From a virus (lineage: Duplodnaviria; Caudoviricetes), in IMG/VR virus record IMGVR_UViG_3300032225_000827, positions 2,070 to 66,069 of that record: a stretch of 64,000 bases of DNA. One strand, given 5' to 3'. Below, piece after piece: positions 26,553 to 57,872 of this stretch (position 1 is its first letter; every line of letters starts with the position of its first letter). Under the pieces are notes generated by a model. It did no database searches. It was not told the origin of the DNA and saw only the letters and a program-made list of their open reading frames with translations. A program made the position numbers and the translations under genes.

Positions 26553-27875
26553 TTATTTGTACATTTTTGAACCCTTCTCCCAAGTTACTTTCAACCCTCT
26601 TTTTCTATCCTTTTCAATCTGCTCTTTAATCCTATTAGTTATACCAGGAAATTTATTCTCTATAGTTTCAGCATTATAATACTCACTTAATGGATATGAT
26701 TGAGCTTCATCTTTATACTTCTCAACCAGTGTTGGAGTGACTTGAGTGACATCAGCTACATTTGATCCATTAATTTTAATTTGATCCATAGGTATTCCAA
26801 TAACTTGGAACTTTCTTTCATTACCTGTCCAATATGGTTTAACATCAGTAACTACAACAGCATGAGGAGTACCTTGATAATCAGTTAAAGACATACTAAC
26901 TGGATTTTGTCCTTTAGTCCATAATGGTAAATTAAGTAAATCTCCTTTCTGTAAATTCCTTTCTTTTACATCTCCTAATGAAACATCTGCAACTGTGTTT
27001 TCACTGAAAACAGGAGTTGTTGTTTTTGATCCACCACCAGCACGAGGCGCTCTAGGTCTAGCCCTTTGCTCTTTATCCCACAATTCAACCTGATCTCTAA
27101 AATAAGCTATAGCTGCTTCAGGTGTTTTTTCTTTAATATTACCGTCTAAATATAACTTTTCTAATTGATCTGCTTTTCTACTCATAGGTAAATTATCCCA
27201 TTTCAATTTAGCAAATTTATCTAATTCTTCTGGTTGTGTTTCCAATAATGTTCCAGTTTCATTTTCAGGAACTACATAATCCTTTTTCAAATAACCAATC
27301 AAATCAAATTCTTTCAATGGTCTTATAGTAGTAATAGTTTTAAACCCTTCGTTTATACCACCTTTTTCATAAGCATCTGTAACAGATTTTTCGTATGCAT
27401 TTATATCTTCTTGGTTGTAATCTTTACCCAAACCTGCAAGCATTGTCTGCATATTTTTATTATATGTTTCAAATGCTTTTTCGTTTTCACTTTTCATGGT
27501 GTTCAATTCAGCCTTTCGCTTATTCAACTCCATGTTGAAATCTTGATTAATAGGCTTGCCTGAAGCTCTCCACTCTGAAACAAAATCACCAATCTCGTTT
27601 ACTTTCTCATCAAAATTAGACCTCGCAATCTCCCACTTAGGATCATACTCAATACTAGAAATATATTGATTTAACTTCTCTTGGCGTGTTTTCTCATTTA
27701 GCAAATCCTTCTCCTGCTCCAACTTCTTTTGTTGTAGCATATTATTCATATAGTCTTGCGTAACCTCAAAAGGGTTTTGCGCACCCAAATCGTATTCTTG
27801 GGCATATCCTGTACCTTGTCCTGAACTATATTGTTCTGGAGCTAAATCGGGAACTAAAAAATCTAATATCGCCAT
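26553..27875 (-). CDS. putative internal virion protein
   Basis: 440 aa, lying between the pilot-like gene and the giant protein. Confidence 0.5.
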   Translation of the reverse strand: MAILDFLVPDLAPEQYSSGQGTGYAQEYDLGAQNPFEVTQDYMNNMLQQKKLEQEKDLLNEKTRQEKLNQYISSIEYDPKWEIARSNFDEKVNEIGDFVSEWRASGKPINQDFNMELNKRKAELNTMKSENEKAFETYNKNMQTMLAGLGKDYNQEDINAYEKSVTDAYEKGGINEGFKTITTIRPLKEFDLIGYLKKDYVVPENETGTLLETQPEELDKFAKLKWDNLPMSRKADQLEKLYLDGNIKEKTPEAAIAYFRDQVELWDKEQRARPRAPRAGGGSKTTTPVFSENTVADVSLGDVKERNLQKGDLLNLPLWTKGQNPVSMSLTDYQGTPHAVVVTDVKPYWTGNERKFQVIGIPMDQIKINGSNVADVTQVTPTLVEKYKDEAQSYPLSEYYNAETIENKFPGITNRIKEQIEKDRKRGLKVTWEKGSKMYK

Positions 27876-53959: not shown

Positions 53960-53998
53960 CGAACCAAAGGTTCTTAGTAAACCTACCCAGCAAATTAG

Positions 53999-54025
53999 GA
54001 GGGTTATTTTAAGCCCTCTTTTTTT
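53999..54025 (+). terminator. intrinsic terminator
   Basis: GAGGGTT...GCCCTC hairpin followed by a T run. Confidence 0.75.
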
Positions 54026-54290
54026 GCGCCTATAATTCCTGTCTTGCACCCATAATTCTCGTAGAATCAACTTTTATCGTTCAAGCTATACCAATATATC
54101 GGTCAGGCTATTTAAAGGGGTGAAATTGGAAAAGAGGGGAACATAGTATGGAGGGGGTTTACTATACACATGATACCATGGGGTGCTGTCCGGAACCGAA
54201 TTTTGCGGAAGGGGTGGGTCAAGATTCCGATTCCATTCCGATAGAAATGTTAAAAGATACTGAAAGCGCCTGATTGGTTTGCGTCATAAA

Positions 54291-54687
54291 GTTGCATTAT
54301 ATTACAACCTAACAAATCGCAAGGAGTTGTATCATAGTGCAACATATCATCACTCCAATGTTGTATTAAATTGCAACGGATTGTCCCTATAAAGTTGTCA
54401 TATAATACAAGTGTAATAGATATGTAATACATATGTATGTTGTATTAAAGTACAATGATTAGGTTGTGTTAAAGTACAATAACACATTGCATTTGTTGTA
54501 ATAAAGTACAACCTATTCCGCATCAGGTTTCTGACAGCTGTGGGATAAAAAGGTGCGTGACAGGACGCAACATTGTTAAAATATGTTAAAATTGTAAAAG
54601 CTATTGATTTTCACCTATACGCGCGTGCATGGGATTCCTTTACCACAAAAAGCGATTGCATTTACGCAGGTTGTTATATAGTACAAC
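54291..54687. repeat. seven 18-bp imperfect palindromes (GTTGY-n-RCAAY)
   Basis: Copies at 54291, 54326, 54360, 54439, 54463, 54495 and 54670. Confidence 0.8.
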
Positions 54688-54820
54688 AAAGGGGTAAGCC
54701 CAATCAGGTTATTTTCACCCTATAAAGCTAAAAATGATCGATTCCCCTAAAAATATTTGCAATTTTATTTTACTGATATTCAATTAGTTAGGATCATTTT
54801 AACATCTGTTAACAATTTTA

Positions 54821-54854
54821 TTTGTCGATAATCAAAAAAGTGGTTGTAGGTTTG
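54821..54854 (+). promoter_or_regulatory. early promoter (TTTG ... TAGGTTTG)
   Basis: TTTG at 54821-24 and TAGGTTTG at 54847-54. It is the TAnnTTTG box I found closest upstream of the early gene run. Confidence 0.55.
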
Positions 54855-55274
54855 CCCTCGTCAACGGACAACGAAAGTGGAGTTAAGGTTTAAGTTACCC
54901 ACGCTAGATACAAGAAGTAGTGAATACTTTAGTTCCTCGCAAAAACAGCCTACCGATTTATTGCTCCTGAGTATCGGTATAAAAATCAAACAGGATAAGA
55001 CAAAGCGTAAGCAATGTACGAGAGTCAGCTCGCAGATGTGGTAAAAATGCCACGGGTGGTTAACTAGGATAAGTTAGATTCCTACACCTAAACTGACCTG
55101 AGCCTGCCAAATAGGTAGGGAGATAATAGGACGAGTCTTGGGACTATATGCGGTAATGTGTTTATACACTAGCAGATGAGTACAGCGTCCTGAAATTAAG
55201 TGAAAGATAGTTTTACTTACAACAAAACAAAGTAGCTGACCTAGAGTTATGTCTAGGCGTTAAACAATAAAGCA

Positions 55275-55328
55275 GGTTAACTGATGAGAGTTAGTTACTC
55301 GAAACGCTAGAACGCTAGCGTATTAACC
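55275..55328 (+). ncRNA. type I hammerhead ribozyme HH1
   Basis: GGTTAA-CTGATGA-GAGT(tagtt)ACTC-GAAA-CGCTAG(aacg)CTAGCG-TA-TTAACC. Predicted cut after A55322 (GUA). Confidence 0.95.
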
Positions 55329-55346
55329 AATTAAAACAAAAATAAA

Positions 55347-55556
55347 ATGAAAGCAATCATAAACACACACATTTTAGACACAAGGTTTAACACAACTTAT
55401 ATAATCACATCTGTAACTGACAAGAGGGTCAATTTAGATGAGATTGGATGTAAATACACTACTTCAACAGGTAGAAGTTCATCTAAGTTTTATGTAGGTC
55501 ATAGCAGTTTTGAAAACAATATTGAGTCAGGAGTGTGGCGAGTAGTAAAAGGTTAA
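55347..55556 (+). CDS. hypothetical early protein
   Basis: 69 aa, bounded by HH1 and HH2; its stop codon lies in stem I of HH2. Confidence 0.7.
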   Translation: MKAIINTHILDTRFNTTYIITSVTDKRVNLDEIGCKYTTSTGRSSSKFYVGHSSFENNIESGVWRVVKG

Positions 55557-55606
55557 CTGACGAGGTCTGAATGACCGAAACAAGGGCGCAAGTCCTTGTC
55601 TTAACC
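55551..55606 (+). ncRNA. type I hammerhead ribozyme HH2
   Basis: GGTTAA-CTGACGA-GGTC(tgaat)GACC-GAAA-CAAGGGC(gcaa)GTCCTTG-TC-TTAACC. Predicted cut after C55600 (GUC). Confidence 0.95.
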
Positions 55607-55622
55607 ATTAAAAAAAACAATT

Positions 55623-55802
55623 ATGAAACAAGGTATCACAATTTTATTGATTGCATCAGCATTTTTCTTTGTCCTAGGTATTGGAATCTTAGTAACGCAT
55701 GACAGCAAGCAAGACATCAACTTTGCAACATTTGTACTCATCATGGACCTGCTGTTCCTAGGGTCGGCAATGTACTTACAAATCTCGGAGGATAGAAAAT
55801 GA
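55623..55802 (+). CDS. small 2-TM membrane protein (59 aa)
   Basis: Read from the sequence: MKQGITILLIASAFFFVLGIGILVTHDSKQDINFATFVLIMDLLFLGSAMYLQISEDRK. First ORF after HH2. Confidence 0.7.
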   Translation: MKQGITILLIASAFFFVLGIGILVTHDSKQDINFATFVLIMDLLFLGSAMYLQISEDRK

Positions 55803-55957
55803 AGTCACTAATTGTATTTAATAGCAACAAGTCTTGGGCTAGCAAATTTCAGGTTGTCAAGACCTTTGCAAATGAACAGCACGAAGACAACTACATAGCA
55901 ATGATGAAACGTAAAGGGTTCACCTTGGATGAGGTATATAATTTAGAAACCAAATAA
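55799..55957 (+). CDS. small hypothetical protein (52 aa)
   Basis: MKSLIVFNSNKSWASKFQ...; ATGA overlap with the upstream gene. Confidence 0.6.
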   Translation: MKSLIVFNSNKSWASKFQVVKTFANEQHEDNYIAMMKRKGFTLDEVYNLETK

Positions 55958-55968
55958 AAACAAGTAAT

Positions 55969-56337
55969 ATGAAAACAAATCACGCAACATTGAACATCGG
56001 GTTGAACAACAATCCGTTCACAGCAAAACAAATCAGGAATCATTTTTATGACTTCTTCTCTAGTCACATCGTGGAAATGAGGGAGGCTCTTGGTGAGTAT
56101 GAAGGTCACGATGAACCAACCTTGGTAGTCAAGGTGAGTAAATTCTCGGGAGATGACCATGCATGGATGACTATAGTGCGAACAATGAATGTATTGTATG
56201 GTCAAGATTGCATCGCTCTCAGGTTGGTTGAAATTGATACTAACGGCTTCCAAAGTGTTACTGAAGGATTGGTATACAATAGTGACTTTGAAGGTGAGAA
56301 GTACAGCTTTGACTCAAAGTACTTCATTGAAATGTAA
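55969..56337 (+). CDS. hypothetical early protein
   Basis: 122 aa with an A-rich leader. Its stop is immediately followed by HH3. Confidence 0.7.
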   Translation: MKTNHATLNIGLNNNPFTAKQIRNHFYDFFSSHIVEMREALGEYEGHDEPTLVVKVSKFSGDDHAWMTIVRTMNVLYGQDCIALRLVEIDTNGFQSVTEGLVYNSDFEGEKYSFDSKYFIEM

Positions 56338-56403
56338 GGTTAACTGATGAGACTTCAATAGTCGAAATCTAGGGAGGTATAATAGTCTCCCTAGGTCTTA
56401 ACC
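56338..56403 (+). ncRNA. type I hammerhead ribozyme HH3
   Basis: GGTTAA-CTGATGA-GACT(tcaat)AGTC-GAAA-TCTAGGGAG...CTCCCTAGG-TC-TTAACC. Predicted cut after C56397 (GUC). Confidence 0.95.
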
Positions 56404-56420
56404 AATAAAAAAACAATGTC

Positions 56421-56696
56421 ATGAAAAAAAGAGAGTTAATGGATGAAATCAACAACTTCATCGAGTATTACACGTCAAATGATGCTGAGAGACAACAGAT
56501 GAGTGATGCACTGCTTGACTATATGCTAGACGTACACCAAGAGCCAATCAAAGAAGTGTACTTCAGGCATAATAGAGAGGAAGGTGTTTATGTTGTAAAG
56601 CGAAATGACTTCCCAACATTCAAGATTTATGCGAGTGAGAAGGAGTCTTACATAGAGTCATTCAGTAAGTTAGGGTACACAATTCACGTAGGTTAA
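56421..56696 (+). CDS. hypothetical early protein
   Basis: 91 aa, first ORF after HH3. Confidence 0.65.
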   Translation: MKKRELMDEINNFIEYYTSNDAERQQMSDALLDYMLDVHQEPIKEVYFRHNREEGVYVVKRNDFPTFKIYASEKESYIESFSKLGYTIHVG

Positions 56697-56717
56697 ACAA
56701 GTAAAACAATAAACACA

Positions 56718-56918
56718 ATGAATATCAATTCAATCGTTGCATACGAGTCAGGGGAGCTGAACGATGCAGAAACATTACAACTATTCGCTGACCTCATCAA
56801 ATCGGGTGAGGTTTGGTGGATGCAGGGTCACTACGGCAGGACAGCTGCGGCATTGCTAGATGGTGGGTACATCACAGCGGATGGAGAGGTAACAAATAAG
56901 TTTAACGAAATAAACTAA
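56718..56918 (+). CDS. small conserved phage protein (DUF7417-like)
   Basis: AYESGEL...LFADLIKSG..W..QGHYGRTAAALLDGGYI pattern. Confidence 0.6.
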   Translation: MNINSIVAYESGELNDAETLQLFADLIKSGEVWWMQGHYGRTAAALLDGGYITADGEVTNKFNEIN

Positions 56919-56923
56919 TCAAG

Positions 56924-57181
56924 ATGAAAAAAGTAGGTCACAACATGTTCGTGGATGGAAATAAGTTCTATTCATTTGTAACGCACGTAGCAACCATTGA
57001 GGGTAGCAAGTTAATTGAGTTGGGTAAGTACTCAGCGACAACGTCCAAGCACGTTAGAAAGTTCGCCACAATGAAGGGATTGGAGGTAGTCCCTGCCAAA
57101 AATAAGGTGGAAGATTTTGATATGCTATGGTCGGGGGTTAGACTGAAAGCTGACCATTTAACACACGTTAACAGACGTTAA
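56924..57181 (+). CDS. hypothetical early protein
   Basis: FYSFVTHVATI...GKYSATTSKHV motif, seen in small phage early proteins. Confidence 0.6.
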   Translation: MKKVGHNMFVDGNKFYSFVTHVATIEGSKLIELGKYSATTSKHVRKFATMKGLEVVPAKNKVEDFDMLWSGVRLKADHLTHVNRR

Positions 57182-57216
57182 CATTTACCAAAGAAACAAT
57201 AAACTAATATTGCGAT

Positions 57217-57513
57217 ATGAAACACACAAATGAACTACAAAAATGGGCTAGGGTTGATACCAAGACCGGTAAAGGGATGAACGAGGGATATTGCGTAAAT
57301 GATGGAGACGCATACTTCGAGAATGAATCAGACTTGATTGAGTACCTACGCAATCAGAGTGATGATAAGGGTGAGGGCTTGTCGGATGAATTTATCCTGA
57401 ATGAATCTTTCGATGCTGACGAGTATTACTACACGGAGTGGGACGTGGAAGATGAAATGTATTACTACATTGAACAGCCTGATGGTACATTGCAGGAGGT
57501 TTGGAGAGATTAA
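57217..57513 (+). CDS. acidic hypothetical protein
   Basis: 98 aa; its stop TAA forms part of HH4 stem I. Confidence 0.65.
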   Translation: MKHTNELQKWARVDTKTGKGMNEGYCVNDGDAYFENESDLIEYLRNQSDDKGEGLSDEFILNESFDADEYYYTEWDVEDEMYYYIEQPDGTLQEVWRD

Positions 57514-57584
57514 CTGACGAGTCCTGATTGGACGAAAGGTCTTAAATGTGGGTATCCATAGCCTGATAAGGTGACCTCTTAATC
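57508..57584 (+). ncRNA. type I hammerhead ribozyme HH4
   Basis: GATTAA-CTGACGA-GTCC(tgatt)GGAC-GAAA-GGTC(extended insert)GACC-TC-TTAATC. Predicted cut after C57578 (CUC). Confidence 0.92.
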
Positions 57585-57599
57585 AATAAACAAAACACG

Positions 57600-57872
57600 A
57601 TGAAAGAAGTAATCAAAGCAACCAAGGGAAAGTATTTCTCGGTGGTATTTACAAAGAAGGATGGGTCGGCTCGCAAGATGACGGCTCGTATTGGAGTCCG
57701 TAAAGGAGTGAACGGAAAGGGCATGAACTACAACCCCGATGATAAAGGATTGGTGGTGGTATGGGACTTGCAAAAGCAGGACTATAGGATGGTCAATATT
57801 TCTACTATCATCTCCTTCAAGTGCGGTAAAAAAGTTATCAACAACAGCACCAATCAGGTTGAGTTAGCATAA
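57600..57872 (+). CDS. SH3-fold WYL-like protein
   Basis: FSVVFTKKDGSARKM...VVVWDLQKQDYRMVNISTI matches the WYL_2-type pattern. First ORF after HH4. Confidence 0.65.
   Translation: MKEVIKATKGKYFSVVFTKKDGSARKMTARIGVRKGVNGKGMNYNPDDKGLVVVWDLQKQDYRMVNISTIISFKCGKKVINNSTNQVELA

Follow-up and report, generated by a model that had tools for sequence, protein, structure and literature searches.

A 66-kb phage, whose host is Flavobacteriia-like, carries four complete type I hammerhead ribozyme motifs (HH1-HH4) in a single rightward early operon. They probably act as intercistronic RNA processing elements packed against the upstream genes without spacer, the overlap of stop codons with ribozyme stem I being a by-product. 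The window, that is, the whole 64,000-nt stretch of DNA analysed, was compared with about 250 copies from related phages, taken from the matches listed in viral contigs. The initial annotation had offered two explanations for the overlap, namely cleavage coupled to translation of the upstream open reading frame (ORF), and a compact modular design in which 'ribozyme + leader + ORF' cassettes recombine at the shared GGTTAACTGA core. Compact design appears to fit the comparative data better than translation-gated cleavage. The features are collected in Table 1.

Table 1. Ribozymes, genes and signals of the ribozyme-bearing operon (window coordinates).
Feature	Position	Strand	Description
Terminator-like hairpin	53997-54020		precedes the promoter motif
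Promoter motif, Bacteroidota-type (TTTG, 22 nt, TAGGTTTG)	54821..54854	+	pattern match; last + strand match before the window end
HH1	55275..55328	+	type I hammerhead, 60.9 bits; predicted cut 55322/55323 (GUA/UUAACC)
69-aa ORF	55347..55556	+	stop TAA 55554-55556; last codon GGT plus stop = HH2 stem I bases 1-6
HH2	55551..55606	+	type I hammerhead, 65 bits; predicted cut 55600/55601 (GUC/UUAACC)
59-aa ORF	55623..55802	+	first gene past HH2; cut site to ATG 22 nt
52-aa ORF	55799..55957	+	start overlaps preceding stop (ATGA); homologues in L032, L093, L085
122-aa ORF	55969..56337	+	stop TAA 56335-56337, ending on the conserved A before HH3
HH3	56338..56403	+	type I hammerhead, 56.8 bits; predicted cut 56397/56398
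91-, 66- and 85-aa ORFs	56421..57181	+	no ribozyme between; gaps 21 and 5 nt
98-aa ORF	57217..57513	+	stop TAA 57511-57513; last codon GAT plus stop = HH4 stem I bases 1-6
HH4	57508..57584	+	type I hammerhead, 53.9 bits; predicted cut 57578/57579
90-aa ORF	57600..57872	+	first gene past HH4; cut site to ATG 21 nt; phrog_2267

Each motif contains CUGANGA, GAAA, U-H and three helices with an open 6-bp stem I. The genome holds exactly four such complete motifs, all co-oriented with the genes, and our own covariance model scored them at 54-65 bits, compared to 13.7 bits for the next-best match in the window. The 5' core box C3-U4-G5-A6-N7-G8-A9 is present in all four copies as CTGATGA or CTGACGA. 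The 3' core (G12-A13-A14, the A15.1-U16.1 pair and a non-G H17) is formed by GAAA, stem III, and then UA in HH1 or UC in HH2-HH4. HH3 has a U-G pair at 15.2-16.2, and HH4 has GAUUAA/UUAAUC as stem I and a 31-nt branched insert in stem III. The three-way junction, with stems II and III loop-closed and stem I open, was found in the minimum-free-energy folds of all four, the HH4 fold being no better than that of shuffled sequence (z = -1.75). The motif shared by the whole subclass opens with an unpaired A and the 5' strand of a 6-bp stem I (G-N4-A). CUGANGA comes next, then stem II (4 bp, closed by a 5-nt loop whose first base is U), GAAA, stem III, which is variable, and U-H; the stem I 3' strand and a further unpaired A end it.

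No Rfam family matched HH1-HH4 at gathering scores. At E-value thresholds, sub-threshold hammerhead matches were obtained together with chance matches to snoZ159, mir-4703 and 5.8S. For RF00163 (Hammerhead_1, gathering score 34 bits) only HH4 gave a match, at 24.9 bits, which was partial and had a wrong, short stem III; for RF03152 (RAGATH-1-hammerhead, gathering score 56.3 bits) HH3 reached 27.1 bits and HH2 24.6 bits. Both families share the core and the type I topology with HH1-HH4, and in HH2 and HH3 the core and stems I and III can be aligned to the RAGATH-1 model. The upstream hairpin of RAGATH-1 is absent here, the aligned upstream stretch being coding sequence with poor pairing, and the folds of extended HH2 and HH3 contained no such hairpin that could hide the ribozyme.

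The lack of a gathering-score match and the shortness of the 6-bp stem I would be expected if the motifs were inactive hammerhead look-alikes, such as DNA-level repeats or structured spacers (terminator-like or protein-binding hairpins). We regard this as highly improbable, as the catalytic-core positions are intact in 4/4 copies, the core is invariant and the stems covary across more than 200 copies, and the copies in the window and in the relatives examined follow the direction of the genes. Across 101 relatives the core was invariant, and stems II and III showed many compensatory pair types (4-6 per position), with 318 cells changed on both sides versus 81 in shuffles, in a set picked by a scanner that required pairing near the junction. 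Stem I was nearly constant in this set and varied freely in the sample unselected on stem I. Compensatory changes in stem III were also present in the orthologue of HH1 in contig L085. Hammerheads need a contact between stem I and loop II, and the conserved flanking A's and the loop II U would suit it. HH1-HH4 are thus best described as likely members of a widespread phage type I hammerhead subclass, predicted to cleave. The cultured Flavobacterium phage vB_FspP_elemoA (MT497075.1) has a member of the family at 27447-27504 on the minus strand; its record annotates the site as an opposite-strand hypothetical protein, which is probably spurious.

The promoter motif listed in Table 1 is the likely start of the ribozyme-bearing operon, although the pattern is only weakly above chance across the window (8 found vs 3.7 expected). 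A blastn search of the 3.4-kb region against GenBank phages gave no match, and PHROG searches of the small ORFs were mostly without match, with hits for the 66-aa and 85-aa ORFs and phrog_2267 for the 90-aa ORF. The 69-aa protein belongs to a conserved small-protein family with 18 homologues at 62-79% identity, and other viral contigs encode homologues of the 98-aa and 122-aa ORFs; since each has homologues, the ORFs ending at HH2-HH4 can be taken as real genes. Each ribozyme is followed by an A-rich leader of about 14-18 nt without a Shine-Dalgarno sequence, and the distance from ribozyme end to ATG had a median of 16 nt (quartiles 14-18). At the non-ribozyme junctions of the same operons the median gap was 11 nt, and one quarter of them had gaps of about 0 nt or overlapped.

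As the initial annotation had noted, the stop codons of the 69-aa and 98-aa ORFs lie in the GGTTAA of HH2 and the GATTAA of HH4, where each TAA makes up bases 4-6 of the stem I 5' strand. HH3 had been placed one base past a TAA; the coordinates agree, and this stop belongs to the 122-aa ORF. HH3 also overlaps its stop codon, by one base, because the base before G1 is an A in 97-99% of copies. The in-frame codons after this stop are GGT TAA. HH1 has no upstream ORF and is preceded by a non-coding leader of about 460 nt.

To place these junctions in the family, two samples of relatives were used: 135 non-redundant relatives selected on the GGTTAA pattern, and 116 collected without a stem I constraint, 100 of them with an upstream ORF. 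Upstream ORFs were called heuristically as the longest ATG ORF of at least 40 aa. A strict scanner missed about 15% of the covariance-model copies (stem II bulges or mismatches), and a looser one was used for later scans; its one false positive was removed. Counted once per family, the stop lay inside the motif in 63 of 89 upstream-ORF families, another 22 had it at -8 to -2 and the remaining 4 at a greater distance, so that 96% of the families stop within 8 nt of the motif. In the sample unselected on stem I, 82/100 upstream ORFs stopped within -8 to +8, 61 overlapped the motif, and the core UGA was the stop in 23/100. The GGTTAA-selected relatives stopped at +4 (the stem I TAA) in 33 cases, at +8 (the core TGA) in 21, at a TAG sharing G1 in 18 and at a TAA ending on the base before G1 in 10. 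About 12-14% of relatives had no upstream ORF. The position of the stop differed between members in 12/19 families having at least two members: the 122-aa ORF, with its stop at -2 in the window, has an orthologue in L085 in which stem I is translated as K-V-N and the core UGA serves as the stop. For the 98-aa ORF, the window and L079 use the stem I UAA, and L060 uses the core UGA. The abutment of stop and motif is therefore a family trait, and its register is not fixed.

Selection of the stem I UAA as a stop codon was considered and rejected as the main cause. In the sample unselected on stem I, this UAA was in frame with the upstream ORF in 17/43 cases, near chance, compared to 14/57 frame-1 ORFs whose stem I lacks a stop. 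That stem I favours UAA is largely explained by base preferences at single positions, which hold in any frame (position 4, U 50%; position 5, A 59%; position 6, A 84%). The ORF frames were non-random: 41 families were in the frame of the stem I UAA, 35 in that of the core UGA and 13 in the third, and some selection therefore links the upstream ORF frame to the ribozyme. We read this bias as avoidance of translation into stem II; it would be predicted by translation gating as well.

In a translation-gated arrangement, the stop would be retained within or next to the ribozyme because ribosomes terminating there would open stem I and the core; the cut would await the end of upstream translation, and the separation of the cistrons would be timed or tuned in this way. 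A ribosome with UAA in its A site encloses about 12-15 nt downstream, and a terminating ribosome would therefore cover CUGANGA as well as the 5' strand of stem I. In 82-96% of family members the stop is close enough to the motif for such a footprint to reach it, and the third frame, which would lead ribosomes deep into stem II, is depleted (13/89 families). Moreover, the conserved unpaired A before G1 and stem I fall in the last codons, and judging from footprint sizes a ribosome there must disrupt the fold. The same positions are predicted by operon packing alone, and the stops within 8 nt are expected equally under both. Against gating, the stop register is labile at homologous junctions, the upstream ORF is missing for HH1 and roughly 1/8 of relatives, the stem I UAA is in frame in a minority of the unselected sample, and the extended HH2 and HH3 folds offer no competing structure for a ribosome to resolve. 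Since a ribosome block is transient and cleavage irreversible, a strong switch would also be hard to obtain. Gating is not required by the data, which do not single it out, and we consider it unlikely. The narrower proposal that terminating ribosomes serve as a clamp, and that most of the class keeps its stop inside the ribozyme's first 10 nt for this reason, is to our mind quite unlikely.

Gain or loss of ORFs at ribozyme boundaries, which had been suggested as a check on modular design, was indeed seen: in the contig pairs L027/L072, L080/L120 and L010/L016 the changes lie exactly at borders of the ribozyme or the leader. The first two pairs each show an insertion, of about 230 nt in L027/L072 and about 400 nt in L080/L120, right after the ribozyme and leader, with a 16-21-nt leader repeated at both ends. 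In L010/L016 a gene has been translocated, and the break falls on the A before G1. Homologues of the 98-aa ORF have a ribozyme behind them in L060 and L079 and lack one in L054, L080, L075, L014, L063, L090 and L056, and a covariance-model search of the contigs with 69-aa ORF homologues (L231, L233-L235) found no ribozyme. Where the ribozyme is lacking, the homologues of both ORFs have the same kind of leader directly after the stop. In the window, stem I supplies the 69-aa ORF with its terminal Gly codon; homologues of this ORF end one residue earlier or differently.

These observations could also mean that ribozyme and leader are portable homology blocks where small early genes are inserted, lost and moved. 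The stop overlap would then be a join scar, left when a ribozyme arrives in place of the native stop and the ORF runs on to the first stop that the ribozyme contains. Both insertions following a ribozyme with a repeated leader, the translocation broken at the A before G1, the ORF ends that are homologous with or without a ribozyme, and the Gly supplied by stem I argue for this. Similar cassettes have a precedent in T4-type phages, where conserved intergenic PeSL elements reportedly mediate the shuffling of early genes, in work ascribed to Arbiol et al. in 2010. In both cases short conserved intergenic sequences flank small early ORFs and provide homology for gain, loss and reordering, but a PeSL is a promoter plus stem-loop and not a ribozyme, and the rearrangements mapped here number three. 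Both insertions were mapped to breakpoints within the A-rich leader that follows the ribozyme, outside the GGTTAACTGA core, which speaks against cassettes recombining at that core. The variable stems of the ribozyme followed the upstream ORF in 92 pairs, no less often than the downstream ORF (33 pairs), so a 'ribozyme + leader + ORF' unit is not the rule; a ribozyme travelling with its downstream ORF was rejected, as no asymmetry favoured the downstream side. Of the modular design proposed initially, compactness thus stands, given the 11-nt median gaps, the presence or absence of the ribozyme and the border rearrangements, and cassette exchange at the core is not supported. Portable blocks would explain origin rather than function and are compatible with packed processing elements; as the explanation of the overlap we find them doubtful.

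According to the packed-element reading, each element would fill the whole gap from the upstream stop codon to the 15-18-nt A-rich leader of the next gene. The polycistronic transcript would most likely be cut at the four sites given in Table 1. The downstream message would begin with a 5'-OH and a leader that is short (21-24 nt) and unstructured, and the upstream message would retain its stop codon and a structured 3' tail. Because a type I hammerhead is cut at the 3' end of the motif, the upstream ORF may enter the 5' strand and still keep its stop. The 5' edge of the motif (A-GGUUAA-CUGANGA) would provide stops in two of three frames, the stem I UAA and the core UGA, as well as UAG if U precedes A-G, and the upstream ORF would end at the first one available. 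The overlap may thus arise because the operons have no spacers and the conserved 5' edge is rich in stop triplets. HH1 itself sits in a context without an upstream ORF.

RiboJ-type insulators are hammerheads placed before a cistron, which strip variable upstream RNA and leave a defined 5' leader; RiboJ was engineered from a different natural hammerhead, plus a hairpin exposing the ribosome-binding site. HH1, after its long leader, would act similarly, but the elements described here are natural and leave an A-rich leader without a Shine-Dalgarno sequence. Hammerheads that flank phage and prophage genes in clusters have been shown to cleave in vitro, and the cutting of polycistronic RNA was put forward as their role (Perreault 2011, PMC3088659). 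As in the present operon, several hammerheads within a few kb flank single phage-origin genes or short blocks, and the proposed production of gene-length mRNAs from long transcripts is similar to the role suggested here. That paper gives no ribozyme position relative to the upstream stop and makes no mention of stop codon, overlap or open reading frame, and the subclass described here differs in its fixed 6-bp stem I, its flanking A's and its occurrence among relatives of Flavobacterium phages. In a fusarivirid RNA virus, a type I hammerhead fills a 66-nt intergenic region, cuts a few nt before the start codon and was proposed to serve the expression of the downstream ORF (PMC13725137). That system concerns a eukaryotic RNA virus and translation, whereas here a DNA phage operon would be cut 21-24 nt before the ATG.

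The role of the hundreds of hammerheads in phage genomes is an open question (PMC6765202). The locus and its relatives define the anatomy of one abundant subclass precisely, with no upstream spacer, a 14-18-nt leader, a 6-bp stem I and conserved flanking A's. They also point to an annotation problem, as the subclass is missed by Rfam at gathering scores. If packing alone is at work, the overlap of stop codon and stem I is ordinary. If the clamp reading were true, the cistrons would be severed only once upstream ribosome traffic drops, and the ribozyme would be a translation-sensing RNA processing switch that works without protein or ligand.

Scanning the entire genome for hammerhead motifs gave exactly four of type I (HH1 to HH4), each on the plus strand. 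CUGANGA, GAAA, U-H, an open 6-bp stem I, and closed stems II and III were present in each of them, and the minimum-energy fold was a three-way junction for all four. Unpaired A's flanked the 6-bp stem I on either side in all four copies (window 55274, 55329, 55550, 55607, 56337, 56404, 57507, and 57585). The stem III of HH4 carried a 31-nt branched insert; this part (window 57537-57571) folds as two small hairpins, and most relatives have short stem III loops. No Rfam family matched the window hammerheads at gathering scores, and the weak matches were to RAGATH-1-hammerhead (27.1 and 24.6 bits vs a threshold of 56.3) and Hammerhead_1 (24.9 bits vs 34).

Positions of the hammerhead motifs and of the regulatory motifs upstream of them (window coordinates)
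Feature	Position	Strand	Basis or remark
Terminator-like hairpin	53997-54020		precedes the promoter motif
Bacteroidota-type promoter motif	54821-54854	+	motif match
HH1	55275-55328	+	type I hammerhead motif, genome scan
HH2	55551-55606	+	type I hammerhead motif, genome scan
HH3	56338-56403	+	type I hammerhead motif, genome scan
HH4	57508-57584	+	type I hammerhead motif, genome scan

The window covers bases 2070-66069 of one 66,069-bp contig and contains a portal gene and a primase/helicase; very large virion proteins are encoded on the minus strand. The closest isolate relatives of the primase were Riemerella and Flavobacterium phages (34-40% amino-acid identity). Between the replication genes and HH1 lies an ORF-poor stretch of ~1.3 kb (window 53960-55274) containing the hairpin and the promoter motif, and the HH1 orthologue in the related phage contig L085 is preceded by a comparable ~870-nt gap without long ORFs. 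Since no further Bacteroidota-type promoter motif was found on the plus strand from 54854 to the window end, the small ORFs from 55347 onward look like a single early operon.

IMG/VR was scanned for GGTTAACTGANGAG...CGAAA, which yielded at least ~150 copies among the matches listed. In an alignment of 101 copies the core was invariant, and stems II and III varied freely with compensatory changes; the covariance model built from it scored HH1-HH4 at 54-65 bits, with the next match at 13.7 bits. Because the stem I sequence had been a search criterion for this set, a second scan was run without that constraint and gave 116 non-redundant type I copies, whose stem I sequences were diverse and whose architecture was strict. 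Stem I was exactly 6 bp in 105 of the 116; 91% had G1 (the first base of its 5' strand) and 84% had an A at position 6. An unpaired A stood directly 5' of G1 in 99% and directly 3' of stem I in 87%. The first base of loop II was an invariant U. We infer that these flanking A's and loop II are candidates for the stem I/loop II contact needed by fast hammerheads. One member of the class occurs in the cultured Flavobacterium phage vB_FspP_elemoA_1-9A (contig L124:1400-1640; MT497075.1 27447-27504, minus strand; stem I GGCAAA/UUUGUC, 45 bits), where the stop of a 21-codon mini-ORF is a TAG sharing G1. GenBank has an opposite-strand hypothetical protein at this site, elemo19A_phanotate43, which is probably a spurious annotation.

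The initial annotation had placed the stop codons of upstream ORFs at the stem I of three ribozymes, and the ORF table agreed at each junction. The TAA within GGTTAA of HH2 ends the 69-aa ORF (55347-55556), the TAA within GATTAA of HH4 ends the 98-aa ORF (57217-57513), and a 122-aa ORF (55969-56337) stops on the three bases preceding HH3. As the A 5' of G1 is conserved, the last A of this TAA is itself a conserved ribozyme position. All three ORFs are genuine genes: the 69-aa protein is a member of a conserved family (18 homologues, many invariant residues), and several viral contigs encode homologues of the 98-aa and 122-aa proteins. The 69-aa family (invariant TS.T.KR.NLD ... Y-T-x-STGR-x-SSKF) had no Pfam or PHROG match, and in a different phage (L231) its homologue is the first gene downstream of a divergent promoter region. 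The ORF directly after HH2 (59 aa; window 55623-55802) is strongly hydrophobic, with two hydrophobic stretches predicted, and resembles a small membrane protein.

The overlap of stop and hammerhead was confirmed and is general across the family. In the GGTTAA-selected set, the upstream stop among the matches listed was the stem I TAA in at least 33 copies, the core TGA in at least 21, a TAG sharing G1 in at least 18, and a TAA whose final base is the conserved A in at least 10; it lay 3-8 nt upstream in at least ~27, and a handful of ORFs continued as far as the region of stem II. Of 100 stops in the set collected without a stem I constraint, 82 fell within -8 to +8 of G1, 61 overlapped the motif, and 23 were the catalytic-core UGA. 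With one vote per upstream-ORF family (n = 89), the stop was inside the motif in 63, at -8 to -2 in 22, and farther away in 4. In 129 of 145 copies the ATG lay 18-27 nt downstream of the cut site, so the ribozyme and a ~16-nt leader make up the entire intergenic region. A literature search found no paper describing stop overlap in phage hammerheads.

The initial annotation offered two explanations, cleavage controlled by ribosomes translating the upstream ORF, or compact modular design. No fixed stop register is retained. The stop position varied among members in 12 of the 19 ORF families having several members; the L085 orthologue of the 122-aa ORF translates stem I as K-V-N and ends at the core UGA (TAA before G1 in the window), and for the 98-aa ORF the stop is the stem I TAA in both the window and contig L079 but the core UGA in L060. 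Among the copies collected without a stem I constraint, 43% had a stop triplet at positions 4-6 of stem I, a frequency largely accounted for by per-position base preferences, and the triplet shared the reading frame of the upstream ORF in just 17 of 43. By family, the frame bias was 41 : 35 : 13, the depleted frame being the one without a built-in stop. We read this as two "safe" frames in which an ORF may lose its own stop yet end within three codons, while third-frame ORFs would be translated into stem II; translational control would predict the same frame bias. At junctions without a ribozyme in the same operons the median gap was 11 nt, with a quarter at ~0 nt or overlapping (-4 to 35 nt in the window), indicating that zero spacer before a ribozyme is what these genomes do everywhere. 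Coupling of cleavage to translation is a candidate reading that these sequence data do not require.

Compact modular design was partly supported, by this packing, by the presence or absence of ribozymes, and by rearrangements at their borders. A ribozyme follows the 98-aa homologue in three contigs; in seven others an A-rich leader comes directly after the stop. The 69-aa homologues of other phages lack a ribozyme both upstream and downstream. The comparison of relatives proposed initially, for ORF gain or loss exactly at ribozyme boundaries, revealed three rearrangements mapping to ribozyme or leader borders. Extra segments of ~230 nt (L072 vs L027) and ~400 nt (L120 vs L080) were inserted right after ribozyme and leader, with a 16-21-nt leader repeated at both ends, and a gene translocation between L010 and L016 had its breakpoint at the A preceding G1. 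In these ~80% identical phages (L010, minus strand; L016:900-3600), the translocated small ORF precedes the first ribozyme in one and the second, with a different stem I (GGUCUA/UAGAUC), in the other. Two parts of the proposal were not supported. The ribozyme's variable stems go along with the upstream ORF no less often than with the downstream ORF, so "ribozyme + leader + ORF" is not the unit, and the mapped insertion breaks were in the leader, outside the core that had been suggested as the site of recombination.

Hammerhead clusters in prophages cleave in vitro, and intercistronic processing has been proposed for them (PMC3088659); a 2019 review (PMC6765202) describes the purpose of such ribozymes as still undefined. 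Intercistronic processing is the reading to which we commit. Cleavage at the four predicted sites would yield RNAs 55323-55600, 55601-56397, 56398-57578, and 57579 onward, each product starting with 5'-OH-UUAA(C/U)C and an A-rich leader, and HH1 would trim a ~460-nt non-coding leader, releasing a non-coding RNA of that rough length. As type I motifs are cut at the 3' end, the upstream ORF would retain its stop codon and a structured tail of ~45-70 nt, and known ribosome footprints imply that stem I and the core have to open transiently whenever a ribosome terminates there. The locus is a well-built example of an already known kind of element.
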